From: a bacterium
Lineage (GTDB): Bacteria; Acidobacteriota; Polarisedimenticolia; Polarisedimenticolales; Polarisedimenticolaceae
DNA: 64,000 nucleotides
Reading direction: 5' to 3'
Assembly: GCA_024226515.1 (NCBI GenBank)
Contig: JAAELQ010000057.1
Coordinates: 12,723 to 76,722 of the forward strand
Below are positions 1 to 55,432 of this stretch, in pieces; positions within the stretch are counted from its first letter, which is position 1; each line of letters starts with the position of its first letter. The position numbers and the translations under genes were made by a program. A model generated the notes under the pieces. The model ran no database searches, was not told where the DNA came from, and was given only the letters and a program-made list of their open reading frames with translations.

Positions 1-726
1 CGGTTCTCGGTCCTGCTGGGCGAGGCGGAGCGCGAGCTCGTCGACGAGGTCGCGCTGCCGATCCCGCCCGAGACGACGCAGCCGGTGACGGCGACGATCG
101 AGATCGGTCAGGAGCAGACGATCTCGGAGCTCGACGTATCGGTCGACATCAACCAGAACGAGCCGCCCGAGCTGATTGTCGAGCTCAGCTCGCCGCAGGG
201 CACGACGGTGCGGCTGCACGATCAGTCTGCGGGAACTACGCAGTACGGGATTCAGCGACGCTACGACCTTGACGCTGCGCCCGACGGCCCGGGCACGATG
301 GCCGACTTCGTCGGCGAATCGGTGTCGGGCACCTGGACGCTGTCGATTCAGGACCTGGGCAACGTCTCGACCGGCGATGGGTCGCTGCGTAGCTGGACGC
401 TGCACATCGGCGTCGAGGGCAGCTGGGACTGTGCCCCGGCGGCCTGCCAGGATCCCGAGCCGGGTGAGGTCGCGGGGGTGACGCTCGAGCGGACGTCCAA
501 CGGCGGCTCGCACGACTTGATCTTCGGCTGGGACGCGCTGGTGCCGGTGTCGGGATACCACGTGTTGCAGTCGACCGTGGCGACGTTCGACTCGGGCGTG
601 ACCGAGATCGGACAGACGGACAGTGCGACGACGACTCTGGCCGTGGACGACCCGGACGGCCCCGCGCCGTCCGTGACGTACTTCCAGGTGCGCGGCGTCA
701 ACGGCTGTGGCGTCGAGGGACCTTGA
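1..726 (+). CDS. 3' end of a secreted multidomain protein: proprotein-convertase-type P-domain followed by an FN3-like C-terminal module (paralogous to the C-terminus of 29361..32738)
   Basis: Frame 1 is open from base 1 with no stop before track ORF 85..726, so the gene starts upstream of the window. TVRLHDQSAG...GTWTLSIQDLG...LRSWTLHI matches the P-domain pattern seen again at 32130..32426. The tail ...VTYFQVRGVNGCGVEGP* parallels ...VTFYQVRAVNGCSQESP* at 32735. Confidence 0.75.
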   Translation, partial: RFSVLLGEAERELVDEVALPIPPETTQPVTATIEIGQEQTISELDVSVDINQNEPPELIVELSSPQGTTVRLHDQSAGTTQYGIQRRYDLDAAPDGPGTMADFVGESVSGTWTLSIQDLGNVSTGDGSLRSWTLHIGVEGSWDCAPAACQDPEPGEVAGVTLERTSNGGSHDLIFGWDALVPVSGYHVLQSTVATFDSGVTEIGQTDSATTTLAVDDPDGPAPSVTYFQVRGVNGCGVEGP

Positions 727-736
727 GGGGGATGAG

Positions 737-2716
737 ATGAACAGGGTGAGAACGCTGTGTGTCGGGTTGTCGTTGACGGCTCTCGTGTCGACGGGGCTGG
801 TCGCGGCGCCGCAATACGTCGACGTCACGGCCGCGCGCAATATCAACTTCGTCGGGACCTACGGCAGCGGATTCCCCTTGATCTTCCCCGAGGACATGCT
901 GCAGGCCAACATGGGCAACGGAGCGGCGGTCGGCGACTACGACGGCGACGGCGACCTCGACATCTACCTGCTGGCCCAGCTCGACCTACCGAACGTGTTG
1001 CTGCGCAACGACCTCGACACGGGGTCGAAGACGTTCACCGACGTGACGGCCACCGCGGGCGTGGGCGACCTCGGCATGTCGCGCGTCGCGCACTTCGCGG
1101 ACCTCGACAACGACGGCGACCTGGACCTGGTGCTGGTCAACGACAACAACATGACGGCTCTCTTCCCGGTCTCCAAGCTGTACCGCAACGACGGCGGCAG
1201 TTTCACCGACGTGACCGCCGGCTCGGGCTTCGAACCGCTGGGCTTCCTGCGCTGTGGAACGTCTCTGGCCGACTACGACGGCGACGGCCTGCTCGACGTT
1301 TACGTGACCAACTGGGGGCTCGAGGCGAGCGTGGGGCAGCCCAACTTCCCGGGCTCGAACCGGCTGTATCGCAACCTCGGCGGGTTCACCTTCGAGGACG
1401 TCACCGAGGACGTAGGCCTGGGCACGCTGAACCGCGACAGCTTTACCGCGATCTTCCACGACTTCGACGACGATCAGCGCCCCGACCTGTGGGTCGCGCT
1501 GGATCACACCGAGGACGAGTTCTACTGGAACACGCCGACCGGTTTCGTCAACGACACGGCGGGTGTCGGGGCGGACCATACCGGCAACGACATGGGCATG
1601 GCGGCGGCCGACTTCGACGACGACGGCGACCTCGACGTCTACGCCACCAACATCACCGACCCGAACGGCATCTTCCCCACGACGCAGTACAACGTGATGC
1701 ACGTCAACCAGGACAACGGCGGCGGGTCGACGTTGTTCGTCGACGAGGCGACGACGCGCGGCGTCGAGGACACGTACTGGGGCTGGGGTGTCGAGTTCAC
1801 CGATTCCGAGAATGGCGGCGACCTCGATATCGTCGCCGTGACCGGCTTCGACGCCTACGTCGATCTGGCCGATCCGGGCTCGCCGATCTACACGACGCCC
1901 TCCGTGCTGTTCGTCAACGACTCGACGGCGATGTTCGTGCGCGACGCGACCGCCGGCCTCGAGGCCGAGGACGATTCGCGCGGCCTGGTCGCGTTCGACT
2001 ACGACCGTGACGGCGACGAGGACCTGCTGATCACGAACGTCAACCAGCCGGTGCGCCTGCTGGAGAACGTCAGCGATCCGCAGGGCCACTGGCTGACCGT
2101 GCGGCTGCAGCAGACCGCCGGCGGCAACCGGAACGGCGTGGGCGCGACCGTGTGGGCGACGATCGGCGGCAAGACCCGGCGCCGCGACATGATCGTCAGC
2201 GACAGTTACCTCACGGGCAGCCCGGCCGAGGTGCACTTCGGTTTCGGCGCCGCCTCGGTCGTGGACGAGCTGCGCGTGCAGTGGACGGACGGCAGCGAGT
2301 CGACCTACCACAACGTGCCCGTCGACCGCGAGATCGACATCGTGCAGCTCGGCCCGGACGGCGATCTGGACGGCGTCGAGGACGGCGTCGACTGCGCGCC
2401 GGGCGACGGCCTGCTGTGGTCCGCTCCGGGCCCGTCCGGGACGTTGACGTTGTCCGGCGGCACGTCGACTGCGCTGAGCTGGTCCGCGCCGGCGGAGCCG
2501 GGAGGCTCCACGCCACGCTTCGACCTCCTGCGCGGCACGGCCCCGGACCTGTCGGCGTCGACCTGCCTGCTGACGGACGTGCCCCAGACGAGCACGTCCG
2601 ACGGCGCGATGCCGGCGGACATCTACTACTACGTAGTGCGCGCGCGCAACGCGTGCGGTGCAAACGCCGGCAACGACTCGTCCGGTGCGCCGCGCACGCT
2701 CGGGTCGTGTCCGTGA
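737..2716 (+). CDS. CRTAC1/ASPIC-UnbV family FG-GAP (VCBS) repeat protein, secreted
   Basis: Track ORF 707..2716. The ATG at 737, preceded by GGGGGA (727-732), gives signal peptide MNRVRTLCVGLSLTALVSTGLVAAPQ. It has repeated Ca-binding FG-GAP-type loops (DYDGDGDLD, DLDNDGDLD, DFDDDGDLD, DYDRDGDED). An ASPIC/UnbV-type segment reads GGNRNGVGATVWATIGGKTRRRDMIVSDSYLTGSPAEVHFGFG. The C-terminal 111 aa form an FN3-like module. Confidence 0.85.
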   Translation: MNRVRTLCVGLSLTALVSTGLVAAPQYVDVTAARNINFVGTYGSGFPLIFPEDMLQANMGNGAAVGDYDGDGDLDIYLLAQLDLPNVLLRNDLDTGSKTFTDVTATAGVGDLGMSRVAHFADLDNDGDLDLVLVNDNNMTALFPVSKLYRNDGGSFTDVTAGSGFEPLGFLRCGTSLADYDGDGLLDVYVTNWGLEASVGQPNFPGSNRLYRNLGGFTFEDVTEDVGLGTLNRDSFTAIFHDFDDDQRPDLWVALDHTEDEFYWNTPTGFVNDTAGVGADHTGNDMGMAAADFDDDGDLDVYATNITDPNGIFPTTQYNVMHVNQDNGGGSTLFVDEATTRGVEDTYWGWGVEFTDSENGGDLDIVAVTGFDAYVDLADPGSPIYTTPSVLFVNDSTAMFVRDATAGLEAEDDSRGLVAFDYDRDGDEDLLITNVNQPVRLLENVSDPQGHWLTVRLQQTAGGNRNGVGATVWATIGGKTRRRDMIVSDSYLTGSPAEVHFGFGAASVVDELRVQWTDGSESTYHNVPVDREIDIVQLGPDGDLDGVEDGVDCAPGDGLLWSAPGPSGTLTLSGGTSTALSWSAPAEPGGSTPRFDLLRGTAPDLSASTCLLTDVPQTSTSDGAMPADIYYYVVRARNACGANAGNDSSGAPRTLGSCP

Positions 2717-4683
2717 GATCGCGCGCCAGCGTCGCGACGCTGCTGGTCGCGCTCGTCGCCGGAACGGCCTCGGCGGCGCCGCAGTTCGTCGACGCGACGG
2801 ACGGCGCCGGCATCGACTTCGTCACGACGTGGGGCAGCGTGTTCCCGCTGATCTTCCCGCACGACATCATGCAGCGAAACGTCGGCACCGGCGCCGCGGT
2901 GGGGGACTATGACGGCGACGGGGATCTCGACATCTACTTCCTGGCGCAGCTCGACCTGCCGAACAGGCTGTTCCGCAACGATCTGAATCTCGGAACCAAG
3001 TCGTTCACCGACGTCACCGCGACGGCGGGGGTCGGAGATCTCGGCTCGTCGAGGGTGACGAGCTTCGGCGACCTGGACAACGACGGCGACCTGGATCTCA
3101 TCCTGGTCAACGACAACGACACGAACGCGACCTTCTCCAAGAGCAAGATCTACCGCAACGACGGCAACGACACGTTCACCGACGTGACGGCCGGATCGAG
3201 CTTCGAGCCGCTGGGCTACCTGCGCTGCGGCGTCGCGCTGGCGGATTACGACGGCGACGGCCTGCTCGACATCTACGTCACCAACTGGGGCTACGAGACG
3301 GGCACCGGTAGCCCGATCTATCCCGGCTCGAACCGGCTGTACCGCAACCTCGGCGGCTTCGTGTTCGAGGACGTGACCGTCTCCTCCGGACTGGGCGTGC
3401 TCGCTCGCGACAGCCTCGGGGTGATCTTCCACGACTTCGACGGCGACCATCGTCCGGATCTGTGGGTCGCGGTCGACCACACGAGCGACGAGTTCTACTG
3501 GAACACGCCGACCGGTTTCGTCAACGACAGCGCCAACGTCGGGACGACGCATACCGGAAACGACATGGGTATGGCCTGCGCGGATTTCGACGACGACGGG
3601 GATCTGGACGTCTACATCACGAACATCACCGACGAGTTCTTCGGCTACACGCAGCACAACGTGCTGCACGTCAACGACCAGGACACGTCGGGCTCGGTGC
3701 ATTTCGTCGACGAGGCGCAGGCGCGCGGAGTCGAGGACACCTACTGGGGCTGGGGCGTCGAGTTCATCGACGTCGAGAACGACGCCGACCTCGATATCAT
3801 CGCGGCCACCGGCATGGACGAGTTCGTCTCCTTCCTGGATCCGGCGTCGCCGATCTACCAGACGCCGTCGGTGTTCTTCGAGAACGACTCCAGCGGAAAC
3901 TTCACGCGCAACAGTACGGCCGGGCTGGAGTACACTGACGACTCGCGGGCGCTGATCGCCTTCGACTACGATCGCGACGGAGACGAGGATCTGTTGTTCA
4001 CCAACATGAACCAGCCGGCGCGCTTGCTGGAGAATGTCAGCGATCCGCTGGGCCACTGGCTGTCGGTGAAACTGATTCAGACCGCGGGCGGCAACCGTGA
4101 CGGGGTCGGCGCGACCGTGTGGGCCACGATCGGTTCCACGACCAAGCGTCGCGACGTGATGACCAGCGACAGCTACGTCTCGGGCAACCCGGCCGAGGTG
4201 CACTTCGGTCTGGGGGCGGCATCCGTGATCGACACGCTGCGCGTCGAGTGGACGGACGGCAGCGAGTCGACCTACCACAACGTGCCGGTCGATCGGCGCA
4301 TCGAGATCGTGCAGCTCGGTCCCGACGGCGACCTCGACGGGGTCGAGGACGGCGTGGACTGTGCGCCCGCGGACGGCGGGCTGTGGTCCGCCCCGGGAGC
4401 CGCGACGGGCCTGGCCCTGACCGGCGGAGCGGCGACCCAGCTGAGCTGGAGCGCGCCGGCGATCTCCGGCGGCACGGACCCGCGGTACGATCTGCTGCGA
4501 TCCACGTCGCCGAATCTCGCATCCCATGACTGTCTATTGACCGACGCCGAGCAGACGACGGCGAACGACGCCTCGCTGCCGACCGAGGTCTTCTACTACG
4601 TGGTCAGAGCCGGAAACGGCTGTGGCGCGAACGCCGGCCAGGATTCGGCGGGCACCCCCCGTGGTCCCGGGGAGTGCCCATGA
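2713..4683 (+). CDS. CRTAC1/ASPIC-UnbV family FG-GAP repeat protein, tandem paralog of 737..2716
   Basis: The GTG at 2713 overlaps the upstream TGA (GTGA, 2713-2716) and gives signal peptide VRSRASVATLLVALVAGTASAAPQ. The track ORF start at 2152 lies inside the upstream gene. It is colinear with the upstream paralog along the full length, with the same FG-GAP loops, the same UnbV segment and the same C-terminal module ending GECP*. Confidence 0.85.
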   Translation: MRSRASVATLLVALVAGTASAAPQFVDATDGAGIDFVTTWGSVFPLIFPHDIMQRNVGTGAAVGDYDGDGDLDIYFLAQLDLPNRLFRNDLNLGTKSFTDVTATAGVGDLGSSRVTSFGDLDNDGDLDLILVNDNDTNATFSKSKIYRNDGNDTFTDVTAGSSFEPLGYLRCGVALADYDGDGLLDIYVTNWGYETGTGSPIYPGSNRLYRNLGGFVFEDVTVSSGLGVLARDSLGVIFHDFDGDHRPDLWVAVDHTSDEFYWNTPTGFVNDSANVGTTHTGNDMGMACADFDDDGDLDVYITNITDEFFGYTQHNVLHVNDQDTSGSVHFVDEAQARGVEDTYWGWGVEFIDVENDADLDIIAATGMDEFVSFLDPASPIYQTPSVFFENDSSGNFTRNSTAGLEYTDDSRALIAFDYDRDGDEDLLFTNMNQPARLLENVSDPLGHWLSVKLIQTAGGNRDGVGATVWATIGSTTKRRDVMTSDSYVSGNPAEVHFGLGAASVIDTLRVEWTDGSESTYHNVPVDRRIEIVQLGPDGDLDGVEDGVDCAPADGGLWSAPGAATGLALTGGAATQLSWSAPAISGGTDPRYDLLRSTSPNLASHDCLLTDAEQTTANDASLPTEVFYYVVRAGNGCGANAGQDSAGTPRGPGECP

Positions 4684-7499
4684 GACCGCACCGGATTCTG
4701 GTCGGCGTTGTTTTTATTCTCGGTACGCTCGGTCTTCCCTCCTGGCCCGGAGAATTGTCGCCGCGCCTGAAACGGGCGCTGCCCGCCGCCGGGCCGGGGG
4801 ACGAGCTGCCGATCGTCGTTCTGATGGATGCAGCCCCGGTCGACGGGGCTCTCCTCGACCGCCTGCGCGACATGAAGCGCAGGGAACGCCGCTCGTTCGC
4901 GATCGCTCGGATGAAGCAGCTCGCACAGAGCAGCCAGGCGCCGGTGCGCGCGGTGCTGGATGCGCTGCCCGGCGGAGCGCCCGAATCGAGAGTGCTGCTC
5001 GGGATCAACGGGCTCGCGCTGCGTGCCGACCCGCTGACGATTCGCAAGCTGGCCGAGCTTCCGCAGGTACGCTGGGTGCTGTTCGATAGCGGGGGCGGCC
5101 ACCCGGACGCCGCCCCGCGGTCGGGAGTCTCCGCGGCGGCCCGGGCCGCGTGGCGTCGCGGCAACCGCGCCGCGGGCGGCGGCCCGACGGGAGGGGACAC
5201 CTCCGGGCCGAACCCCGCGGCGACCGTTCGTCCCGAGCTGACGGCGATGGGGGCCGACGCCGTGTGGGCGTTGGGCCATACGGGCGCCGGGGTGATCGTC
5301 GCCATCGTCGACACCGGCTTCGACCGCACGCATCCCGATCTGGCCGATCACGTCTGGACCAATCTCGACGAGATCCCGGACAACGGCGTCGATGACGACC
5401 TGAACGGCTTCATCGACGACACCTGGGGCTGGGAGTTCTGCGACGACCACAACGACCCGGGGCAGGGCAACCAGCACGGGACGCAGGTCGCGGGCCAGGT
5501 CGCGGGAGACGGCACCAACGGAAAGGTCACCGGGATGGCGCCCGACGCCGAGCTGATGGCGCTGGCGATCGACTGCGACACGCCGTCGATCGGCTGGGCG
5601 GCCAGTGATTACGCGATCGCGGAGGGCGCGCACATCATCTCGCAGTCCTACAGCTGGTGGTGGACCGACCAGCCGGACTACGAGGCGTTCCGCCGTCAGA
5701 CCGACGCGGAGTTGGCGGCCGGCGTGATCCACGTCAACTCGGCCGGCAACCACGGCGGAAGTTCGACTTACCCGATCCCGTACAACATCTCGACTCCGGC
5801 CAACTGTCCGGCTCCCTGGCGCCACCCCGAGCAGGTGGCGGGCGGAGTGTCGTCGATGATCGGCGTCGGCAACATCGACTGGTTCTTCGACACGATCGCC
5901 TTCTCTTCATCCACCGGGCCGGCGGCCTGGGAGGACATCCGGGCCAATACCGACCCCGCCTACCCCCACACGATGCCGCCCGAGTATCGGGACTACCCGT
6001 ACGCGAACGGCGCGTCGCCCGGCCTGATCAAGCCCGACATCTCGGCCTACGGCAACTCGACCGAGTCGACCTGCCCCGGAGGCGTCTACTGCGCGTTCAG
6101 CGGTACGTCCGCGGCGCAACCGAAGGTCGCGGGCTCACTGGCGCTGATGCTGTCGGCCAACCCCGAGGCCTCGCCCGCGCTGCTGGCCGAGGCGTTGCTG
6201 ACGACGGCCGAGCACCGGGGCACGCTCGGCCTGAACAACGTCTACGGCGTCGGGCTGGTGCAGGCGCTGCCCGCGGTCGAGCTGGTGCAGTCGGACATTC
6301 TCTATCAGTCGCATGCGATCGACGACACGGCCGAGGGCAACGGCGACCTGGCCGCGGATCCCGGCGAGCGCGTCACGTTGCGCATCACCGTGCACAACGT
6401 CACCGAGTCGACGCCGATCAACGATGTGCAGGCGATTCTCAGCAGCTCCACCCCCGGAGTGGAGCTGCACAATCACGTCGGCTTTTACCCGCTGATCCCT
6501 GCTCTCGGCTCCGCCGAGAGCCAGGCCCCCCACTTCTCGCTGAGCATCGCCCCCGAGCTGTGCGCCACCACGATCGAGTTTGATCTGGAGCTGCGCTACA
6601 ACGGCCAGGTGCGCAGCGTGCAGTTCGCCGTCCAGGTCGGCGAGGCCGACTGGGTCACGCTGCTGGACGACGACTTCGAGACGGACAGTGGCTGGATGAC
6701 GGATCCCGGAACGGCGACCCAGGGCTACTGGGTGCGCGAGGACCCGATCCCGGTGCGCGACTTCTCGAACCGTCTGTCCAATCCGGAGGACGACACGACG
6801 GTGGCGCCGGGCACGCACTGCTGGGTCACGGGCAACGGATCGTCGGGGTTCTTCGACCCCAACGGCAACGACGTCGACGGCGGTACGGTCTCGCTGACCT
6901 CGCCCGCGTTCGGCTCGCCGTTTCTGCTGGCGCTCGATCTGAGCTACGACAGCTGGTACTACGACTCCAACATATCCGACGTGGACCGCTTCGACGTGCA
7001 GCTGTCCAACGACGGCGGCAGCAACTGGGTTCCGGTCGACGTCCGGAACAACGACTTCGGTGGCTGGGAGACCCGCAGCGTGGACCTGATCTCGGCCGTT
7101 GCTCCGACGAGCGACATGCGATTGCGCTTCAGCGCGACCGACGACCCGATCGACGGTCCGGTCGACGCGGCCGTCGACGAGGTCCGACTGCGGGGCATCC
7201 TCGCCATGTGCGACGACCACGTCCCGACCGTCTTGCAGTCGCCGAACCCGGTGGGTGACACGCTGCGACTCGTGCCGGCCGAGGGCGGCCATCTCCTGCT
7301 CGAGTGGGACGCCCCGCCGGTCGACGGCGCACACGATCCGGCGACGCTGTATCGCGTCGACCGCTCGGCGGCCGCCGACGCGGGGTTCGCGGAGATCGGT
7401 TCGGCCACGGCGACGACCTGGGTCGACGTCGACGGGCTCGCGGCACCGAGCGTGTCGTACTACCTCGTGCGGGCCGAGAACTCGGGTGGCGGAGAGTAG
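4680..7499 (+). CDS. Secreted subtilisin-family (S8) serine peptidase with C-terminal accessory domains
   Basis: The ATG at 4680 overlaps the upstream TGA (ATGA); the GTG at 4674 is an alternative. Catalytic motifs are VAIVDTGFD (Asp), HGTQVAG (His) and SGTSAAQPKVAG (Ser). It has a signal peptide (RILVGVVFILGTLGLPSWPG) and an I9-like propeptide. After the catalytic domain come a module shared with the metalloprotease (6321..6644), a jelly-roll/MAM-like region (DDFETDSGW...DEVRLRG) and an FN3-like tail (7209..7496, ...SYYLVRAENSGGGE*). Confidence 0.9.
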   Translation: MRPHRILVGVVFILGTLGLPSWPGELSPRLKRALPAAGPGDELPIVVLMDAAPVDGALLDRLRDMKRRERRSFAIARMKQLAQSSQAPVRAVLDALPGGAPESRVLLGINGLALRADPLTIRKLAELPQVRWVLFDSGGGHPDAAPRSGVSAAARAAWRRGNRAAGGGPTGGDTSGPNPAATVRPELTAMGADAVWALGHTGAGVIVAIVDTGFDRTHPDLADHVWTNLDEIPDNGVDDDLNGFIDDTWGWEFCDDHNDPGQGNQHGTQVAGQVAGDGTNGKVTGMAPDAELMALAIDCDTPSIGWAASDYAIAEGAHIISQSYSWWWTDQPDYEAFRRQTDAELAAGVIHVNSAGNHGGSSTYPIPYNISTPANCPAPWRHPEQVAGGVSSMIGVGNIDWFFDTIAFSSSTGPAAWEDIRANTDPAYPHTMPPEYRDYPYANGASPGLIKPDISAYGNSTESTCPGGVYCAFSGTSAAQPKVAGSLALMLSANPEASPALLAEALLTTAEHRGTLGLNNVYGVGLVQALPAVELVQSDILYQSHAIDDTAEGNGDLAADPGERVTLRITVHNVTESTPINDVQAILSSSTPGVELHNHVGFYPLIPALGSAESQAPHFSLSIAPELCATTIEFDLELRYNGQVRSVQFAVQVGEADWVTLLDDDFETDSGWMTDPGTATQGYWVREDPIPVRDFSNRLSNPEDDTTVAPGTHCWVTGNGSSGFFDPNGNDVDGGTVSLTSPAFGSPFLLALDLSYDSWYYDSNISDVDRFDVQLSNDGGSNWVPVDVRNNDFGGWETRSVDLISAVAPTSDMRLRFSATDDPIDGPVDAAVDEVRLRGILAMCDDHVPTVLQSPNPVGDTLRLVPAEGGHLLLEWDAPPVDGAHDPATLYRVDRSAAADAGFAEIGSATATTWVDVDGLAAPSVSYYLVRAENSGGGE

Positions 7500-7533
7500 C
7501 CCGGGGCCGCTGCTGCGCTTCGGCCGGAAGCGC

Positions 7534-8319
7534 GTGCTGATCGGCGTCGGCGTCTCCTGCGTCGCGATCGAGCTGTTGCTCGTGTTCCTGGACGCGACCG
7601 TCAACTACTCGCACTGGACGCGGCTGGGCATGATCCGGCGCCTGGTCAACATCACCCGGGAGGACGCCCTGGCCTCGTGGTTCGGCGTCACGCTGACCCT
7701 CATGGCCGCGCTGACGCTGTGGCTGATCTGGCTCGTGGCCCGGGCCGAGGGGGTCTCGCGCCGCGTCGCCGTGGGCTGGCTCGTGCTGGCGCTGCTCTTC
7801 AGCTACGTCACCGTCGACGACGGCGCGCAGGTGCACGAGCGTGTCGGCTCGGCGTTCAAGAAGGTGTACACGAAGGACATGTCGAAGGCCGAGCCCACGA
7901 CGATCGGCGGGAAGCTGCTGAGGAGGTTCCCCAGCTACGCCTGGCAGATCGTCTTCGCGCCCGCGTTCATCGCTCTGTTCGGCTTCATGCTGCTATTCCT
8001 CTGGACGCAGTTGCCGGATCCGCTGTCACGCTTCGCGATTTTCGCGGCGCTCGCGTGCTTCGGTCTGGCCGTGGGGCTCGATTTCGTCGAGGGGCTGGAC
8101 CCGGGGCACGAGTGGAATCTTTATTCGCGCATCGATGCCGCGTACGACCTGCAGAACTTCGCGCTCGTGCAGTTCGAGAAGAAGCCGTACGACGCGCTAC
8201 GCCACTTCTCGAAGTCCGCCGAGGAGTTCCTGGAGATGCTGGGGATGACCCTGCTGTGGGTCGTCTTTCTCTCGCATTTCATGAGTCGGGCGGAGACGCT
8301 ACGCGTCGAGTTCCGCTAG
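7534..8319 (+). CDS. Hypothetical polytopic membrane protein
   Basis: This is the in-frame part of track ORF 7099..8319 that lies downstream of the S8 stop (7497-7499). The GTG at 7534 follows GGAAG. There are five or six hydrophobic helices (VSCVAIELLLVFL, LTLMAALTLWLIWLV, VGWLVLALLFSYV, IVFAPAFIALFGFMLLFLW, FAIFAALACFGLAVGL, MTLLWVVFLSHF). I recognised no family, and the start codon is uncertain. Confidence 0.5.
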   Translation: MLIGVGVSCVAIELLLVFLDATVNYSHWTRLGMIRRLVNITREDALASWFGVTLTLMAALTLWLIWLVARAEGVSRRVAVGWLVLALLFSYVTVDDGAQVHERVGSAFKKVYTKDMSKAEPTTIGGKLLRRFPSYAWQIVFAPAFIALFGFMLLFLWTQLPDPLSRFAIFAALACFGLAVGLDFVEGLDPGHEWNLYSRIDAAYDLQNFALVQFEKKPYDALRHFSKSAEEFLEMLGMTLLWVVFLSHFMSRAETLRVEFR

Positions 8320-17112: not shown

Positions 17113-17526
17113 ATGGAGATGCGCATCGGATTCCCGGGAGGGGAGAGAGTCGAGGCCGAGTACGGGAGCTTCACCATCCGCACCGACCAGCCGGCCCACA
17201 AGGGCGGCGAGGGTACGGCGCCGGCTCCGTTCGACTACTTCCTGGCGTCGATCGGGACGTGCGCCGGCTTCTACGTGCACAAGTTTCTCCGGCAGCGTGA
17301 CCTGCCCACGCAGGGCGTGCACGTCGTCCTGCGCACGACGAAGGACACCGAGCGCCGCATGATCGAGCAGATCGATCTCGACATCGTCGTGCCCGACGAC
17401 TTTCCGGAGAAGTACGAGAAGGCGATCGTACGTGCCGTCGACCAGTGCACGGTCAAACGCCACATCCTCACCCCGCCGCGCTTCAGCACGACCGTGAACC
17501 GCCCGGCGCGACAGATTGCTTCCTGA
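17113..17526 (+). CDS. OsmC/Ohr-family protein
   Basis: MEMRIGFPGG...KGGEGTAPAPFDYFLASIGTCAGFYV...AVDQCTVKRH carries the two conserved OsmC cysteines. A GTG at 17101 (GTGA overlap with the ArsR stop) is an alternative start. Confidence 0.85.
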   Translation: MEMRIGFPGGERVEAEYGSFTIRTDQPAHKGGEGTAPAPFDYFLASIGTCAGFYVHKFLRQRDLPTQGVHVVLRTTKDTERRMIEQIDLDIVVPDDFPEKYEKAIVRAVDQCTVKRHILTPPRFSTTVNRPARQIAS

Positions 17527-17542
17527 GGGACAGGAGCCTCGC

Positions 17543-19732
17543 ATGTCGACCGTATCGCGACGACGGTTTCTGAAAATATCCGGATGCGGTGCGGGGCTCG
17601 CCGCCGCGGCCTCCGCCGCACCGTACCTGCCCGGCGCCCAGGCCTCCGCCCAGGACGGCGAGCTGCGCCGCGTGCCCACCTTCTGCGACGTCTGCTTCTG
17701 GAAGTGCGGAGCGATCGCCACCGTCAAGGGCGGCAAGCTGTGGAAGATCGAGGGCAACCCCGAAGACCCGCTCAGCCGGGGACGCCTCTGCCCGCGCGGG
17801 ACGGGCGGCGTCGGGGCGCACCTCGACCCCGATCGGCTGCGCGCTCCGCTGATCCGTCGCGAAGCGCGCGGCCGCGAGGAGTGGGTCGAGGTGACGTGGG
17901 ACCAGGCGCTGGACCGCATCGCCGAGAAGCTGCAGGCGATCGAGAAGTCCCACGGACCGGAGGCCGTCGCGATGTTCAGCCACGGCATCGGCGGCGCGTT
18001 CCTCAAGCACACGATCAAGGCCTTCGGCTCACCCAACATCGCCGCGCCGTCGTACGCGCAGTGCCGCGGGCCGCGCGACGTCGGCTTCAGCCTGACGTTC
18101 GGCGAGGACGTCAGCAGCCCCGAGCGGACCGACATCAAGAACGCGCGCTGCCTCGTGCTGATCGGCTCGCACCTGGGCGAGAACATGCACAACACGCAGG
18201 TGCAGGAGTTCGCCGAGGCGATCGGCAATGGCGCCTCGGTCATCGTCGTCGATCCGCGCTTCTCCGTCGCCGCGAGCAAGGCCAAGCACTATCTGCCGAT
18301 CAAGCCCGGCACCGACCTCGCGTTGCTGCTGGCGTGGATGAACGTGCTCGTGACCGAGGGCCTGTACGACCGAGAGTACGTCGAGGCGTACGGCTACGGG
18401 TTCGACGCGTTCGAGTCCATCGTCGCGCAGTACACGCCCGAGTGGGCCTACGCGCGGACGACCATTCCGCCGCAGTTGATCCGCGAGACTGCGCGCGAGA
18501 TGGCGCGCCAGCGGCCGGCCACGTTGGTCCACCCGGGGCGTCACGTCACGTGGTACGGCGACGACGCGCAGCGCAGCCGCGCGATCGCGTTGCTGAACGC
18601 ATTGCTCGGAAGCTGGGGCCGCCGCGGCGGCTTCTACAGTCAGGCCAGCATGGACGTGCCCGGCTATCCCTATCCGCCGTACCCGAAGCCGGACCGGCCC
18701 AGGGCGGACAACCCGGGCAAACGCTATCCGTTCGCCGACGGCGCGCTGTCGACGGGGATCCGCGAGGCCACGCTGACCGGCGAGCCGTATCCGATCAAGG
18801 GCTGGCTGGTCTACGCGACGAACCTGCTGCAGGCGCTGCCGAATCAGGAAGAGACGATCCGCGCCATTCGGCAGCTGGATCTGATGGTCGTGGTCGACGT
18901 GGTTCCGAGCGAGATCGCGGGCTGGGCCGACGTCGTCCTGCCCGAGTCGGTCTATCTCGAGCGACACGACGAGCTCAACGTCGAGTGGTTTCGCGAGCCG
19001 TTCGTCGCTCTGCGGCAGCCGGTCGTCGACGCCCCGCACGAGCAGAAACCCAACTGGTGGATCGCGCGCGAGCTCGCGAAACGGCTGGGACTGGAGCGTT
19101 ACTTCCCGTGGACGGACATCGACGACTATCTGCGTCGCAGGGTCGAGTCCGCGGGCCTGGATTACGACCGGCTGAAGCGTGACGGAATCCTCCGCGGCGC
19201 GCGTCAGCCGATCTACTTCGACGAGGGAGTGCCCGCGGAGTTCCCGACGCCGTCGGGGAAGATCGAGTTCTACTCGTCGCAACTGGCGGCCGCCGGTTTC
19301 GACGCGGTGCCGAAGTACACGCCGCCCGACGAGCCGCCTCCCGGCTACTTCCGGCTGCTCTACGGCCGCTCGCCGGTGCACTCGTTCAGTCGCACGCAGA
19401 CCAACCCGATCCTCGCCGAGATGATGGACGAGAACGAGGTCTGGCTGAACGCGGACATCGCCCGGCGCTACGGCCTCGCCAGCGGCGACCGTGTGCGGCT
19501 GCGCAACCAGGACGACGTGTTGAGCGATCCGATTCGCGTCAAGGCCACACAGCGCATCCGCGGCGACTGCGTCTACATGGTGCACGGCTTCGGTCACACC
19601 GCCCGCGGGTTGCGCAGCACACGAGGCAAGGGCGCCAGCGACGCGAGTCTGATCACGCGCTACACCATCGATCCGCTGATGGGCGGCAACGGAATGAGCG
19701 TCAACTTCGTCAAGCTCGAACTGGAGGCATGA
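17543..19732 (+). CDS. Molybdopterin (bis-MGD) oxidoreductase catalytic subunit, polysulfide/thiosulfate-reductase (PsrA/PhsA)-like, Tat-exported
   Basis: The ATG at 17543 follows CAGGAG. Twin-arginine signal is MSTVSRRRFLKISGCGAGLAAAASAAPYLPGAQA. The N-terminal 4Fe-4S motif is C-x2-C-x3-C-x27-C (CDVCFWKCGAIATVKGGKLWKIEGNPEDPLSRGRLCPRG). It is followed by ferredoxin and NrfD-type subunits. Confidence 0.9.
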   Translation: MSTVSRRRFLKISGCGAGLAAAASAAPYLPGAQASAQDGELRRVPTFCDVCFWKCGAIATVKGGKLWKIEGNPEDPLSRGRLCPRGTGGVGAHLDPDRLRAPLIRREARGREEWVEVTWDQALDRIAEKLQAIEKSHGPEAVAMFSHGIGGAFLKHTIKAFGSPNIAAPSYAQCRGPRDVGFSLTFGEDVSSPERTDIKNARCLVLIGSHLGENMHNTQVQEFAEAIGNGASVIVVDPRFSVAASKAKHYLPIKPGTDLALLLAWMNVLVTEGLYDREYVEAYGYGFDAFESIVAQYTPEWAYARTTIPPQLIRETAREMARQRPATLVHPGRHVTWYGDDAQRSRAIALLNALLGSWGRRGGFYSQASMDVPGYPYPPYPKPDRPRADNPGKRYPFADGALSTGIREATLTGEPYPIKGWLVYATNLLQALPNQEETIRAIRQLDLMVVVDVVPSEIAGWADVVLPESVYLERHDELNVEWFREPFVALRQPVVDAPHEQKPNWWIARELAKRLGLERYFPWTDIDDYLRRRVESAGLDYDRLKRDGILRGARQPIYFDEGVPAEFPTPSGKIEFYSSQLAAAGFDAVPKYTPPDEPPPGYFRLLYGRSPVHSFSRTQTNPILAEMMDENEVWLNADIARRYGLASGDRVRLRNQDDVLSDPIRVKATQRIRGDCVYMVHGFGHTARGLRSTRGKGASDASLITRYTIDPLMGGNGMSVNFVKLELEA

Positions 19733-19736
19733 GGCG

Positions 19737-20276
19737 ATGGCTCGCTTCGGCATGGTGATCGATACGACGAGATGCGTGGGGTGCATGGACTGCGTCGTCG
19801 CCTGTAAGACGGAGAACGAGGTGCCGCAGGGCTACTGCCGTGACTGGATCGTGGAGGAAGCCCGCGGAGCGTTCCCCGATCTACAACTCGAGATTCGCAG
19901 CGAACGCTGCAATCACTGCGACAACCCGCCCTGCGTCTGGTGCTGCCCCACCGGAGCCAGCCACGTGAGCGACTTCGGCAAGCTGGTGCAGATCGACAAG
20001 GAAGTGTGCATCGGTTGCAAGGCGTGCCTGGCGGCCTGCCCCTACGACGCACGCTACATCCATCCCGACGGCTACGCCGACAAGTGCACGTTCTGCGAAC
20101 ACCGCATCAAGGATGGGCTGGATCCCGCGTGCGTGGCCGTGTGCCCCACACACTGCATGCACTTCGGCGACCTGGATGACCCGGACAGCGAAGTGTCGAG
20201 GCTGATCCTCTCGCGACGGCACCACACGCTGCTGGCCGCGGCCGGCACGAAACCCAGGATCTACTTCCTGACCTGA
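19737..20276 (+). CDS. 4Fe-4S ferredoxin-type electron-transfer subunit (PsrB/NrfC-like)
   Basis: It has four Cys clusters (CVGCMDCVVACK, CNHCDNPPCVWCCP, CIGCKACLAACP, CTFCEHRI...CVAVCP). It starts 4 nt after the catalytic subunit stop. Confidence 0.9.
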   Translation: MARFGMVIDTTRCVGCMDCVVACKTENEVPQGYCRDWIVEEARGAFPDLQLEIRSERCNHCDNPPCVWCCPTGASHVSDFGKLVQIDKEVCIGCKACLAACPYDARYIHPDGYADKCTFCEHRIKDGLDPACVAVCPTHCMHFGDLDDPDSEVSRLILSRRHHTLLAAAGTKPRIYFLT

Positions 20277-20286
20277 GGAGCGGGGA

Positions 20287-21225
20287 ATGGTCGAGCTGAC
20301 GAGCACGCGCGCCAACGAGATGGTCGATCCGGTGCTTCATGTGTGGGGCTGGGAGATACCGGTCTACCTGTTTCTCGGCGGGCTGGTCGCCGGGATGATG
20401 GTCATCTCGGGCTACTTCCTGTTCTCGGGACGCTACCGCAACACGCACTGCGTGTGTCACGTCGTGCCGGGTCTCGGTCTCGTGCTGCTGAGTGTCGGGA
20501 TGCTCGCGTTGTTCCTGGACCTCGAGCACAAGGCGTACGTCTGGCGCCTGTACGTGACGTTCATGATCCGCTCGCCGATGTCGTGGGGGGCGTGGATCCT
20601 GCTGCTGGTCTACCCGGCGCTGGTCGCGAACTTCGTGCTGCGACCGCCCGCACCGCTCGCGCGACGGATTCCGCAGTTGCAGGCCGTATCGAGTCGGCTG
20701 CTGGCGCGAGAACAGTGGGTCAAGTGGATCGGCGCGGCGAACATGCTGCTGGGCATGCTGCTCGGCGTCTACACCGGGATCCTGCTCAGCGCGCTCGGCG
20801 CCCGCCCACTGTGGGGCAGTGCATTGCTGGGGCCGCTGTTCCTGGTCTCGGGTATGTCCGCGGCTGCCGCGCTGGTGCACCTGATCGCGCGTGAGCGGCA
20901 GGAGCGCGAGCTGCTGGCCAAGGCGGACAACGGCTTCCTCGTGATCGAGCTGGTGCTGATCGGGTTGTTCTTCGTCGGGCTCGCCTCGACGACCGCCGTT
21001 CACATGGAGGCCGCGAAGATGTTCTTCGGCGGCCCGTACACCGCCCAGTTCTGGGTTCTCGTCGTCGGCATCGGCATCGTCGTTCCGCTCGGACTGCAGC
21101 TGCTGGCGGTGCAGCACCGCATCCGGCACACGCCCGTGGCCCCGATTCTCGTCATCGGCGGCGGCCTGCTCCTGCGCTTCGTGATCGTGGCCGCAGGTCA
21201 GCTGTCGCACTGGAACGCCTCGTAG
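20287..21225 (+). CDS. NrfD/PsrC-family membrane anchor subunit
   Basis: 312 aa with about eight hydrophobic helices. The N-terminus ...HVWGWEIPVYLFLGGLVAGMMVISGY is typical of polysulfide-reductase NrfD proteins. Confidence 0.85.
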   Translation: MVELTSTRANEMVDPVLHVWGWEIPVYLFLGGLVAGMMVISGYFLFSGRYRNTHCVCHVVPGLGLVLLSVGMLALFLDLEHKAYVWRLYVTFMIRSPMSWGAWILLLVYPALVANFVLRPPAPLARRIPQLQAVSSRLLAREQWVKWIGAANMLLGMLLGVYTGILLSALGARPLWGSALLGPLFLVSGMSAAAALVHLIARERQERELLAKADNGFLVIELVLIGLFFVGLASTTAVHMEAAKMFFGGPYTAQFWVLVVGIGIVVPLGLQLLAVQHRIRHTPVAPILVIGGGLLLRFVIVAAGQLSHWNAS

Positions 21226-21238
21226 AAAGGTGACAACG

Positions 21239-21766
21239 ATGGACTCTGCGACTCGTCCCCAACCGTACATGAACCCCTACCTCGCCGGCCTGGGTCTCGG
21301 TCTCGTACTGCTGTCCTCGTTCGTGATCATGGGTCGCGGCCTCGGGGCCTCCGGCGCCGTCTCTTCTGTCGCCGCGGTGGCGGTCGAGAGCGTGGCGGCG
21401 GAGCATGCCCGCAGCAACGAGTTCTACTCCGGCTACCTCGAGGGCGGCAACGGGCATCCGCTGAAGTCCTGGCTGGTGTTCGAGGTGCTCGGCGTGATCG
21501 TCGGCGGCTTCGTCTCCGGCGCGCTGGCGCGACGCACGAGAAGGACCGTCGAGCGCGGACCGCGGATCTCGGTCGGTGCGCGCATGACGCTGGCCTTGAT
21601 CGGTGGGGCGCTGATGGGATTCGGCGCGAAGCTGGCCCACGGTTGCACCAGCGGTCAGGCGCTGACCGGAGGGGCGTTGCTCAACGCCGGTAGCTGGGTC
21701 GTGATGCTGATGTTCTTCGCGGGCGCCTACGCGCTGGCCTGGTTCATGAGGAGGCAGTGGCGATGA
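21239..21766 (+). CDS. YeeE/YedE-family (sulfur-transport domain) membrane protein, half-size, copy 1
   Basis: The ATG at 21239 lies 8 nt after GAAAGG. The conserved loop is GAKLAHGCTSGQALTGG. There are four hydrophobic helices. Confidence 0.8.
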   Translation: MDSATRPQPYMNPYLAGLGLGLVLLSSFVIMGRGLGASGAVSSVAAVAVESVAAEHARSNEFYSGYLEGGNGHPLKSWLVFEVLGVIVGGFVSGALARRTRRTVERGPRISVGARMTLALIGGALMGFGAKLAHGCTSGQALTGGALLNAGSWVVMLMFFAGAYALAWFMRRQWR

Positions 21767-22356
21767 TGGCACCGCTGTACAAGTACGGGCTGTTCGGCGA
21801 CGAGGCGTCCCTGGTCGTTGCCTTCCTGATCGGGATCGGTTTCGGTTTCTTCCTCGAGCGCGCCGGGTTCGGCAGCGCCAGGAAGCTGATGGGGCAGTTC
21901 TACCTGACCGACATGGCGGTGTTCAAGGTGATGTTCACCGCGGTCGTCACGGCGATGCTCGGCCTGTTCTACCTCGGCTGGATCGGCGTGCTGGATCTGT
22001 CGCTGGTCTACCTCAGCGAGACGTGGCTCCTGCCCCAGGCGGTCGGCGGGCTGCTGCTGGGGTTCGGCTTCATCATCGGGGGCTACTGTCCGGGCACATC
22101 GATGGTGGCGATCGCCACCGGCAAGATCGACGCCCTGTTGTTCGCGGCGGGAGTGTTCGTCGGGATCGTCGGCTTCGGCGAGGCCTGGCCGCTGATCTCC
22201 GGCTTCGCCGCCTCGACCGCGCTCGGCACGCAGACTCTTCCGGGTGCGCTGTTCCTGCCCTACGGCGTGCTGGTGTTCGTCATCGTCCTGATCGCGCTCG
22301 TGGCCTTCCGCGGCGCCGAGTGGGTCGAGGCAAGGGCGGCGGAGAAGGCGTCATGA
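21763..22356 (+). CDS. YeeE/YedE-family (sulfur-transport domain) membrane protein, half-size, copy 2
   Basis: The ATG at 21763 overlaps the upstream TGA (ATGA) and lies 8 nt after GAGGAGG (21748-21754). The conserved loop is IIGGYCPGTSMVAIATG. The track start is a GTG at 21757. Confidence 0.8.
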   Translation: MMAPLYKYGLFGDEASLVVAFLIGIGFGFFLERAGFGSARKLMGQFYLTDMAVFKVMFTAVVTAMLGLFYLGWIGVLDLSLVYLSETWLLPQAVGGLLLGFGFIIGGYCPGTSMVAIATGKIDALLFAAGVFVGIVGFGEAWPLISGFAASTALGTQTLPGALFLPYGVLVFVIVLIALVAFRGAEWVEARAAEKAS

Positions 22357-29360: not shown

Positions 29361-32300
29361 GTGGGAAGCAAGCCGTTCGCGAATCGCGCGCTCCGTCTCG
29401 GAGTCGGTCTCGCCGTGACCTCGGTCGTGTGCGTGAGCGCCGTCCTCTCTGCCGGCCCGGACCCGACGCCTGAGGGCTTCGAGCGGCTCGCCAGGTCACG
29501 AAGTGGGTCCGTGGTCGCCGTGGCTCCGCGCAGCGTGGACGACTTGCCGGCCGCGGACGTCCTGCGCGCCGGCTGGCAGGCCTTTCGCCGGCGCCACCCC
29601 GGCGCCTGGAAGGTCTACCTGGACGAGCGCAGCGCGCTGCCCACGCTCGTCTCCGGCGCCGGGATTCGCGTGGCTGCGCCAGCGGACTCGTCGCCGACGG
29701 ACCTGGAGCAGCACCTGCGCGCCTTCGTCGACGCCAATCGCGACCTGCTGGACCCCTGGGGGGGGACCATGGCGCTGGACGAGGACGCCAGCGCCGAGCT
29801 GCGTCCCGGCCACCGGCAGCTCGTCTTTCGCCAGTCGGTTGACGGCGTGCTCGTCGAGAACTCCCGCTTCGACTTCCACGTCGTCGACGGCAAGCTGACG
29901 CTGTTCGGCGCGTCCAGGTGGGGCGCCCCGACCGTCGGCGGCGTGCCTGCGATCGCGGCCGACGAGGCCGCGGATCTGCTCGACGCCTACCTTCGCGGCG
30001 CCTCCGCGAGCCTCGAGCCGGTCGGGGAACCGCGGCTGGTGCTGCTGGCGCGGGACGCCGACCCGACGGTCGAGCGCAGTCCCAAGCGCTGGGTCGGGGC
30101 GCGCGGCGCGGGCCTGTCGCACACGCTCGTGTGGCGGCTGCGCTACCGCGAGGCCAGAGGACCGGAAAGCTGGATCGCGGAGGTCGACGCCCACGACGGT
30201 CGCGTGCTCGCCTTCTTCGACGACACGCGGCACCACGCGGTCCGCGGCGGCGTCCTGCCCGAGTCACCGGATGAGGGCTGCACGTCCGGTGGGTGCGAGA
30301 TCGCCGGCTTCCCGATGCCGTTCGCCGACTGGACCGAGGACGGGCAGGCGACGGAGAGCGCCGACGCGTTCGGCAACCTGGCCTGCGTCGATCCGCAGGC
30401 GACGTTCGAGACGGCGCTGAGCGGGCCGTACTTCGAGGTCGACGACGATTGCGGCCCCGTTCTGGCGAGCGGGGGCTGCGCGGACGGGATCGATCTCGGA
30501 CTGCGCGCGGGCGAGAATTGCGAGGTCGCGCCCGGCTCGTCCCCGGGGAACACCGTCGCCGCGCGCAGCGCCTATTACCACGCCAACCGCGTGGCCGAGG
30601 TCGCGCGCTTCTACAATCCGGGCAACGCGTACCTCAACGAGCCGGTGCGGATCAACACCAACTGGAACCAGCACTGCAACGCCTCGTACGGCAACGGGGG
30701 CATCTACCTCTACCGCGCCGGGACGAGCTGGGCCGAGTGCGCCAACAGCGGCGAGATCCAGGGCATCATCGTCCACGAGTGGGGCCATGGCTACGACGAG
30801 AACGACGGCGGGGGCTGGGACCGGACCTCCGAGGCCTACGGCGACATCGTCGCCATGCTCGCCTCGCGCCAGTCCTGCTTCGGGCCGGGGTTGTTCCTGG
30901 ACGGCCGCACCTGCTCGGGCTCCGGCGACGCGTGCCTGACCTGCACCGGCTTCCGCGATCACGACTGGGCGGCGCGCCAGGCCAACACTCCCGCCACGCC
31001 GCAGGTGTTCGTGCAGAACAATTGCCTCCCCGGTACGGGGGACTCGCCCTGCGGCGGGCAGGTCCACTGCGAGTCCTATCCGATCGACGAGTCGATCTTC
31101 GACCTGGCGACCAGGGACCTGCCGGCCTCCGGGATGGACGCCGATTCGGCGTGGCAGCTCGTCGAGCGGCTGTGGTACACGACGCGCGCCGGATCCGGCG
31201 GGGACATCTACAACTGCGCCCTGCCCAGCTCCGACAGCTGCGGCGCCGGTAGCTGGTACCAGCGCATGCGCGTGGCCGACGACGACGACGCCGACCTGTC
31301 GAACGGCACGCCGCACGCCGCCGCGCTGTACGCGGCCTTCGCACGGCACAACATCGCGTGCGGACTACCGGGCGACCCCGAGAACCAGAGCACGTCTTCC
31401 TGCCCGGCGCTGACACAGCCCGCGCTGACGGTAGACGAGACGGGCGCGACGCCGCAGCTCGGGTGGAGTCCCGTGGCGAACGCGGCCGAGTACCTCGTGT
31501 TGCGCGGCGACCTCGGCTGCGACAAGCAGCAGGTGCCCGTCGAGGTCCTGCCTGCGCCGACGACGACCTGGGACGACACGCTGCCGGATCCCGGCGTCGC
31601 GCGCGCCTACCGCGTGCAGGCGATCGGCTCGAACGCCGCCTGCCGCAGCGCGGTGTCCAACTGCGAGCTCGCCGGGGGCGGGCCGCGGCTGCAGCTCAAC
31701 GCCTACTCCGTGCTGGAGGAGGGCAACAACATCAACGGCAACGGCGTCGCCGACCCGGGGGAGACCGTGCGCATCCCCGCGACGCTGTTCAACGGCGGCT
31801 CCGCCGACGCCGAATCCGTGAGCGGACGCCTGCGCACGGTCGACCCCGCGCAGGGACGCGTCGTCGAACCGGTCGCGCCGTATCCGGATCTTGCCGTCGG
31901 TGAGGCCGCAGACTCCTCACAGCCGCACTTCGAGCTGACGTTGTTCGAGTCCGGACCCTCGTGCGGGGACCGCGTCGAGCTGGAGCTCGACATGGAGGCC
32001 GACGGCGCCTCGACCCGCCGCAGTCGAATCGAACTGCAGCTGGGTAGCTTCGAGGGAGAGTTCGTCAAGGTCGACGGGCAGACGATCCCGATCGTCACCC
32101 AGCAGCCCGTCCTGTCCACGCTGGAAGTGCTCGAGGCTCACCTGATCGACGATCTCGACATCACGGTCGAGATCGGCCACTCCTACGTGCACGAGCTGAC
32201 AGTCGATCTCACCTCGCCGCAGAACACGACGGTCCGTCTGCACGCGAACAGCTCCGGCGGACCGGGGCCCTCCACGCGCTACGACCTGTTCGCCCAGCCG

Positions 32301-52354: not shown

Positions 52355-55432
<3,078 letters not shown>

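Follow-up and report, generated by a model that had tools for sequence, protein, structure and literature searches.

The stretch of acidobacterial DNA analysed here (64 kb, 65-70% G+C; hereafter the window) carries seven genes, among roughly 45, whose products end in related C-terminal modules (m1 to m7). The sequence-only reading of this DNA had described these ends as a single fibronectin-III (FN3)-like module, placed strictly at the C-terminus of otherwise unrelated secreted proteins and resembling a sorting or secretion tag. All seven open reading frames are present and stop where that reading had placed their ends, and the translations confirm that each of them closes with a related module. 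Two subfamilies (type A and type B) and three divergent forms were distinguished, which are listed below with their scores against hidden Markov models (HMMs); as a guard against circularity, these external HMMs were built from non-window homologues alone and were run on the 744 six-frame fragments of the window.

424-723, + strand: m1 (type B), right after the P_proprotein domain of a host that is cut by the window start; ends -NGCGVEGP; external type-B HMM 94 bits, type-A HMM 26 bits
2357-2713, + strand: m2 (type A, the focal copy), C-terminus of the CRTAC1-like protein encoded at 707-2716; ends -SCP; external type-A HMM 119 bits
2357-2395, + strand: DxDxDGxxDxxDC loop of m2
about 2426-2656, + strand: FN3 core of m2
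2657-2713, + strand: irregular G-strand tail of m2, up to -SCP
4324-4680, + strand: m3 (type A), C-terminal in the second of the two CRTAC1-like paralogues; ends -ECP; external type-A HMM 111 bits
7188-7496, + strand: m4 (divergent, Cys-poor), C-terminus of an S8 protease; ends -NSGGGE; external type-A HMM 21 bits, type-B HMM only 8.6 bits
about 31422-31622, + strand: weak eighth FN3-like copy, Cys-containing and internal to the HExxH protein; HMM of the seven copies 11.3 bits, external HMMs 5-8 bits
32430-32735, + strand: m5 (type B), in a 1149-aa HExxH metalloprotease, after its P_proprotein domain; ends -NGCSQESP; external type-B HMM 117 bits, type-A HMM 8.6 bits
39627-39926, + strand: m6 (divergent, type-A-like), in a host without Pfam domain; no DxDxDG loop and no third Cys; ends -FCQ; external type-A HMM 32 bits (domain E 7e-9)
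59295-59663, - strand: m7 (GHL10-type form), retaining Cys 2 and 4 of type A and having one additional pair; tail GGYGFDSNGVARP; ends -ACP; external type-A HMM 12.5 bits (domain E 0.006)
1-7499, + strand: four adjacent module-bearing genes, arranged like an operon (P-domain protein, CRTAC1a, CRTAC1b, S8 protease)

The Pfam domains of the hosts agree with the earlier description: P_proprotein, FG-GAP_3 with UnbV_ASPIC twice (the tandem CRTAC1-like paralogues), Peptidase_S8, HExxH with P_proprotein, and GHL10, and the 'hydrolase-like' host of m6 gave no Pfam match. Signal peptides had been claimed for all seven hosts; signal-peptide-like N-termini can be read from the translations of the six complete ones, and the N-terminus of the m1 host lies beyond the window edge. 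The motifs that had been quoted from the modules (LSWSAP, LEWDAP, FDWSP, FGWDA, LSWGTS, and those running from YYYVVRARNACG through HYFLIVPSD) were all recovered, as was the penultimate Cys of four proteins (-SCP, -ECP, -ACP, -FCQ). Two of the details had to be revised: the central Cys, previously placed within the Y-x-L strand, lies about 10 residues after it, and the modules begin earlier than had been drawn, at an upstream Cys, with type A also taking in the DxDxDG loop. Within the run at 1-7499, 11 nt separate the first two genes, and overlapping stop/start codons follow (GTGA at 2713-2716, ATGA at 4680-4683), the start of the next gene being contained in the terminal Pro codon and the stop of the gene before. 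The DNA downstream of the seven stop codons shares no common motif.

The external HMMs recovered all seven modules, and none of the unrelated window frames fell below a domain E of 0.5; the copies thus align beyond generic FN3 features, as had been proposed. Pairwise alignment of the seven tails gave 155 bits for m2 and m3 (64% identical) and 68 bits for m1 and m5, with about 13-41 bits for the remaining pairs. Types A and B matched each other in a profile-profile alignment (hhalign; 97% probability, E 1e-10), in 92 columns that begin at the first Cys and reach the NxC motif. Judged by these comparisons, the seven tails are homologous at the superfamily level, yet they do not represent the one common module that had been envisaged, but at least two tight subfamilies together with three divergent forms (m4, m6, and m7).

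Type A (m2 and m3) spans roughly 120 residues and consists of the DxDxDGxxDxxDC loop, packed onto the FN3 core, and a tail of the form GxGxxSxGxPRxxxxCP. Both copies lie at the extreme C-terminus and carry the Asp loop with its Cys, C70, the Cys of NxCG, and a Cys as the last residue but one; m6 and m7 are peripheral to this type. In type B (m1 and m5), a P_proprotein domain is followed by the linker CxPxxCxEPTPTEAP, with its Pro/Thr-rich EPTPTEAP part, by a GYHVLQS motif, and by the end -FFQVRAVNxCxxEGP, at which both proteins stop. The type-B chain terminates just past the F strand, five residues on (-NxCxxE[GS]P), and has no G strand. Among the divergent forms, the tail of m7 aligns with type A, and orthologous fragments were found in metagenomes for m7 (P0001 and P0015) as well as for m4 (P0312, which ends -NSGGTE). 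The internal FN3-like domain of the HExxH metalloprotease reads …QLGWSPVANAAEYLVLRGDLGC…AYRVQAIGSNAAC…, and this protein thus has an internal as well as a terminal copy.

The AlphaFold model of the type-A module m2, calculated from a 51-sequence alignment, reached a predicted local distance difference test score (pLDDT) of 92.3 and a predicted template-modelling score of 0.82, with a pLDDT of 96 for the Asp loop; it superseded an earlier run with 11 sequences (pLDDT 66), which had given weak FN3 matches only. The modelled type A shows the seven-strand sandwich of FN3, and all 50 of the top 50 structure matches in the PDB were FN3 domains (titin, integrin beta-4, neogenin, and similar; target template-modelling score about 0.65, root-mean-square deviation 2.2-2.9 Å), while a PDB sequence search with the module returned generic FN3 domains only. 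Sequence models (the 2025 copy of Pfam and NCBIfam release 20) saw little of this: the Pfam fn3 model (PF00041) matched m2 with 14.8 bits (E 0.035), below the 25-bit gathering threshold, and did not match the other six modules. None of 51 type-A members was matched by any Pfam or NCBIfam model, and 3 of the 51 were touched by fn3 (E >= 0.025). The test that had been suggested, an HMM of the seven copies run against the databases, had a mixed outcome. In a search of 1.84 billion representative proteins that used no word index, the pooled profile matched 18,892 proteins, and the best 150 of these were giant proteins with 7-46 matched stretches each; three that were sampled were canonical PF00041 arrays. 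The pooled profile therefore mainly finds internal tandem fn3 repeats, the very result that had been named as refuting, while the subfamily profiles are C-terminally biased (see below). At the profile level, these searches place the modules in remote homology to fn3 proteins. The FN3 fold that had been read from the strand pattern is borne out by the model, its structural neighbours, and the distant PF00041 hits, and we are highly confident that the seven C-termini are divergent FN3-fold domains.

Four Cys residues are near-invariant in type A, i.e., C13 (DCAP), C70, C100 (NxCG), and C118 (penultimate), and in the Asp loop D1, D3, D5, D12, and C13 are each conserved in over 90% of the modules. 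In 131 aligned modules, the pattern CCCC occurred in 91 and CCC- in 23, the latter class being likely an alignment artefact of long-tail variants that also end in -CP, and type B showed C-C-. The conserved Cys pair that had been attributed to all seven copies does not exist in that form: m4 has a single Cys, type B retains only the first and third Cys of type A, and m7 and its orthologue have the second and fourth (-C-C) plus an extra pair. Because positions 1+3 and 2+4 have been lost jointly in two separate lineages, the alignment suggests two disulfides, C13-C100 and C70-C118. This pairing would fit the topology of FN3, in which the N-terminus should come to lie beside the FG loop.

The position of the modules was assessed in searches at the protein and at the DNA level. 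The type-A profile retrieved 112 metagenomic proteins, about 105 of them with a specific match (>50 bits) that ended 0-20 residues from the protein end, mostly in -CP, although the protein-level searches returned solely proteins of <260 aa and the counts hence come mostly from fragments at contig edges. As a cross-check free of this length bias, scans were made at the DNA level; they used the narrow alignments A3 and A6 and were thus restricted to the pattern [FY]YY[LV]VRA[RG]N, so that the taxonomic range they give is a lower bound. The scan of species-representative genomes yielded six specific type-A loci, all in metagenome-assembled genomes of Acidobacteriota (Ca. Polarisedimenticolaceae in two cases, the other four assigned just to Acidobacteriota), with the module at the extreme C-terminus in all six. 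One of the Ca. Polarisedimenticolaceae contigs (L001) encodes a protein 72% identical to the CRTAC1-like host in the window, by which the window is placed close to Ca. Polarisedimenticolaceae. When organism names were looked up by cluster, a single label came back, that of a metagenome-assembled genome fragment of Actinomycetota. The scan of metagenome contigs yielded 53 loci, nearly all specific ones terminal, and seven extra modules met by chance in neighbouring genes in the flanks of related loci were terminal without exception (7/7). When type-A modules were pooled and made non-redundant (n = 161), 158 lay within 20 residues of the stop codon, and these 158 had an exact -CP end in 135 cases and a penultimate Cys in 146, whereas low-scoring canonical fn3-like domains in the same sequences were internal in 22 of 26 cases. 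The type-B profile retrieved 41 proteins, nearly all of which end in -CxxE[GS]P at the stop codon, with about 40 of 42 type-B hits terminal. Module carriers also cluster in tandem or convergent pairs elsewhere (flanks of L003, L021/L022, L024, L027, L029, and L037), where the module is always C-terminal.

The spread over unrelated exported hosts, noticed before in the window, extends to the Pfam domains of the type-A carriers at large, which include Kelch propellers, S8, FG-GAP, Sortilin/BNR, MopE, TSP_3, DUF11, RHS, M36, M1, M23, and PA domains, and an N-terminal signal-like segment is visible in most complete type-A host frames. Types A and B are uncurated families that occur almost only at the extreme C-terminus of varied signal-peptide proteins, in Acidobacteriota and in soil and sediment metagenomes. 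Our literature searches found no paper describing the domain. The fold is known; the subfamilies are defined by their Cys pattern, the acidic loop, the truncated G strand of type B, and the fixed C-terminal ends.

The strictly terminal placement that had been claimed holds for the great majority of copies, with several departures. In an RHS protein of 2068 residues (L041, 620-6823), a type-A module comes directly after the signal peptide, another type-A module is internal to its protein, with about 200 residues after it (L016, 3313-6972), and two type-B-like copies stand in tandem in P0306. Stand-alone forms occur as well: P0218 is a complete 196-residue gene product in which a short linker joins a signal peptide to the module. 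In addition, P0271 (L064, 4001-4447; 148 aa) combines an N-terminal membrane segment with the module, and its gene, part of a phage-like block, has a Phage-tail_3 gene upstream of it and, directly after it, a gene for a Hydrolase_2 (SleB-type) cell-wall hydrolase. The rare N-terminal, internal, tandem, and stand-alone copies imply that the module is an autonomous domain and not an obligatory C-terminal peptide, and the non-terminal and stand-alone ones fit binding better than they fit a translocation signal. In polymorphic RHS toxins, the toxin occupies the C-terminus and trafficking domains sit N-terminally; by analogy, the N-terminal placement at L041, a single case, would be compatible with a targeting role.

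Our best overall explanation, which we rate a little short of an even chance, is that these ends are FN3 end-domains with a role in targeting or retention; the functional part, a folded targeting or retention domain, is put forward tentatively. After Sec export, the module would fold and oxidise outside the cytoplasm, with C13-C100 tying the Asp loop to the FG loop, and C70-C118 stapling the C-terminal tail to the core. The terminal domain might then hold or direct varied cargo by binding a common partner in the envelope or matrix, and its function would resemble that of a dockerin or a lectin-type anchor more than that of a tripartite sorting peptide made to be cleaved. An address or anchor is favoured over a substrate-binding module or a plain spacer because of the breadth of hosts, the high local density (7 of roughly 45 genes, with tandem neighbours at other loci), and the constrained exact terminus. 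A more specific version appears unlikely, namely that types A and B tag the cargo of an as yet undescribed route for export or surface attachment, used by Acidobacteriota and by other diderms of soil and sediment, in which the folded, disulfide-locked domain with its fixed Pro-terminated end would be read by a dedicated outer-membrane or surface receptor. The findings are not yet evidence of a new sorting system.

Several observations weigh against a targeting or retention role. Neither a cleavage site nor a sorting enzyme or binding partner was identified, the window genes being ordinary, and no neighbour family other than the module carriers themselves recurred across 63 related loci and the window (1,457 frames clustered all-against-all), although the missing neighbour family is weak evidence, as the genes that carry known sorting tags likewise lie dispersed over genomes. 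The F-strand motif YYxVRAxN is common in ordinary bacterial fn3 domains too (P0013, P0014, and P0017) and therefore does not define a family-specific binding surface. The Cys pattern of m6 (CC-C) is at odds with the proposed disulfide pairing, and type B, as read from its residues, would have to complete its fold without a G strand of its own. The terminal bias itself, counted largely on contig-edge fragments at the protein level, could come from the spread of the module as a 3' cassette with its own stop codon and not from its function.

Shuffling of such 3' cassettes, which spares the signal peptide, is also part of a reading that we consider somewhat unlikely, namely that the module is a passive end-cap or spacer, i.e., a stable, disulfide-locked, Pro-terminated FN3 domain without a partner, which stabilises enzymes or shields their C-termini from exoproteases. 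This would account for the generic fold and F-strand motif, for the Pro-terminated ends of both subfamilies with the last Cys 1-5 residues from the end, for the tolerance of internal and N-terminal positions, and for the fact that no partner or cognate enzyme was found, and the organism does encode many secreted proteases. It is less easily reconciled with the single terminal copies, since FN3 domains of the usual stabilising or spacer kind lie mostly inside the protein and in tandem (22 of the 26 above are internal), with the retention of -CP in 135 of 158 modules and of the Asp loop across very different hosts, which is more constraint than a passive spacer leads one to expect, or with the stand-alone proteins of signal peptide and module, which would have no cargo to protect. 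That the seven ends share no real feature and resemble each other only through a generic composition, of FN3 or of beta strands, in a genome of high GC is hardly credible: the Pfam fn3 score of m2 (14.8 bits, and none for the other six) and the weak type-A HMM scores of m7 and m5 speak for it, and it is refuted by HMMs of foreign sequences that recover all seven modules and no other window frame, by the profile match between the types (97% in hhalign), and by the >200 external homologues with the same ends.

A near-exclusively terminal domain with a fixed end, T9SS-like in size and beta-sandwich architecture and found on proteases, glycosidase-like enzymes, propellers, and a toxin, could also be an outer-membrane secretion signal, recognised in the periplasm by a translocon and perhaps then removed or attached, as an acidobacterial counterpart of the C-terminal domain (CTD) of Bacteroidota's type IX secretion system (T9SS). 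The high density in the window (7 of roughly 45 genes) and the neighbouring module-bearing genes at other loci would suit this as well. We nevertheless consider it quite unlikely, as no T9SS CTD was matched by sequence models or among the top 50 structures, the T9SS was confined to Bacteroidetes in a survey of 2,484 genomes (PMC4793230), N-terminal, internal, tandem, and stand-alone copies occur, and no conserved neighbouring gene was found at the 63 loci. Very unlikely, in our estimate, is a pre-peptidase-type C-terminal prodomain, which would aid folding or maintain the latency of the enzyme in the course of export, to be clipped off outside the cell, in the manner of PPC or the P-domain. 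The protease hosts (S8, HExxH, M36, M1, and M23) and the constant position of type B after P_proprotein, via the Pro/Thr-rich linker EPTPTEAP, point in this direction; the many non-protease hosts (CRTAC1/FG-GAP, Kelch, GHL10, MopE, and RHS), the lack of a PF04151 (PPC) match, and the lack of a conserved cleavage motif ahead of type A point away from it, and the two putative disulfides and the conserved terminus suggest a domain that is built to persist.

No gene in the 64-kb window resembles a sortase, exosortase, rhombosortase, or T9SS component, in agreement with the earlier remark that no cognate sorting enzyme was visible there, and the T9SS core genes PorV, PorU, SprA, and GldKLMN are absent from it. 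The rest of the window consists of ordinary diderm chromosomal genes, such as RND/HlyD/OEP efflux, OmpA, PEPCK, two-component systems, and transporters, and some of these deserve mention in their own right. Directly downstream of the S8 protease gene and overlapping it, a multi-pass membrane protein without Pfam match is encoded (7099-8319, + strand), which has no homologue among the 63 related loci. A Psr/Phs-like respiratory operon (17516-22356, + strand) comprises a molybdopterin oxidoreductase, a 4Fe-4S dicluster protein, an NrfD membrane subunit, and two Sulf_transp half-proteins, in keeping with an acidobacterium that cycles sulfur in sediment. A fusion of receiver, winged-helix, and Ser/Thr kinase domains (36274-37860, + strand) is encoded just upstream of the gene for the m6 host, and a 43%-identical homologue of this fusion is found near the CRTAC1 orthologue in L001 (2851-5595). 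The protein encoded at 40728-42128 (- strand), near a PP2C phosphatase gene, is 466 aa long and has a collagen-like Gly-X-Y repeat (Pfam Collagen, E 4e-6). Finally, the HlyD/CusB-type membrane-fusion protein at 55455-57050 (- strand) has four N-terminal Cys/His repeats (C.EH......C..CHPE) before its barrel-sandwich domain, a residue pattern which suggests that the adaptor of the neighbouring RND pump (52355-55432) carries an additional metal-binding part.

Soils and sediments harbour Acidobacteriota in abundance as degraders, and little is understood of how their proteases and glycosidases are brought across the outer membrane or onto it. The module family offers a handle for predicting the extracellular proteome of uncultured lineages and a starting point for phylogenetic profiling in search of a receptor or sorting machinery that recognises it. 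Even if the modules were end-caps, both families would merit curated models, as Pfam and NCBIfam leave these 100-120 residues unannotated.

Among known domains, the module is closest to FN3 itself (PF00041, clan E-set/Ig-like), which is found in bacterial secreted hydrolases and with which it shares the fold, the B-strand Trp, the C-strand Tyr, and the F-strand Y-x-V-x-A-x-N. It differs in its two conserved Cys pairs with their predicted disulfides, in the Asp-rich loop fused to its N-terminus, in the irregular (type A) or absent (type B) G strand, and in being a single copy at the extreme C-terminus with a fixed end, whereas ordinary fn3 domains are internal or tandem. The DxDxDGxxDxxDC opening of type A resembles one calcium-binding TSP3 repeat (PF02412) and may bind calcium; here, however, a single repeat is built into the FN3 unit. 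PF02412 matched 1 of 51 type-A modules weakly (E 0.33), and genuine TSP_3 arrays stand upstream of the module in 3 of 31 hosts. PPC and TIGR03437 are likewise lineage-typical, beta-rich C-terminal domains of secreted proteins including proteases, and the latter, the Solibacter C-terminal domain, is acidobacterial and of unknown function. For these and the following families, the models were searched with the seven modules at E <= 10 and with the 51 members at E <= 1: neither PPC nor TIGR03437 gave a match, and membership of PPC was rejected; the hosts here extend well beyond peptidases.

The sequence-only reading had compared the modules with T9SS CTDs, PEP-CTERM, and GlyGly-CTERM, and as family membership this likeness did not stand up, since no model matched and no transmembrane or Arg-rich tail is present. 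Tripartite CTERM signals are also C-terminal on varied exported proteins, but they are short, with a signature motif, a transmembrane helix, and an Arg-rich cluster, and MYXO-CTERM and CGP-CTERM have an invariant Cys near the end, as the module does (10.1101/2023.06.07.544157). The module, by comparison, is a folded domain of about 120 residues, and type A stops one residue after its Cys. PEP-CTERM, GlyGly-CTERM, MYXO-CTERM, and LPXTG were excluded, as the seven proteins stop 0-5 residues past the last conserved residue without a hydrophobic stretch or basic tail, and the NCBIfam CTERM models matched neither the seven modules nor the 51 members. The resemblance to the T9SS CTD (TIGR04183/PF18962 Por_Secre_tail; TIGR04131) goes further: both are terminal beta-sandwiches, of ~80-120 residues in the CTD, on many unrelated signal-peptide enzymes and adhesins, with many copies per genome and scattered carrier genes. 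Membership was again rejected, with no model match and no CTD among the top 50 structures, and the module stands apart by its Asp loop, predicted disulfides, and acidobacterial origin; where a CTD would be expected to be exclusively C-terminal, type-A modules are terminal in 98% of cases, and rare N-terminal, internal, and stand-alone copies occur.

Dockerins (PF00404) provide the model of a tag that binds a surface scaffold, and they too are C-terminal modules on many secreted enzymes of one organism with an acidic loop of the DxDxDG type. The module is not a dockerin, as PF00404 matched neither the seven copies nor the 51 members, a single acidic loop takes the place of the duplicated EF-hand-like pair, and the fold is a beta-sandwich and not helical; to our knowledge, it has no cohesin-like partner. 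If the unlikely cargo-tag reading were true, the module would correspond in function to the T9SS CTD or to the dockerin-cohesin pair.

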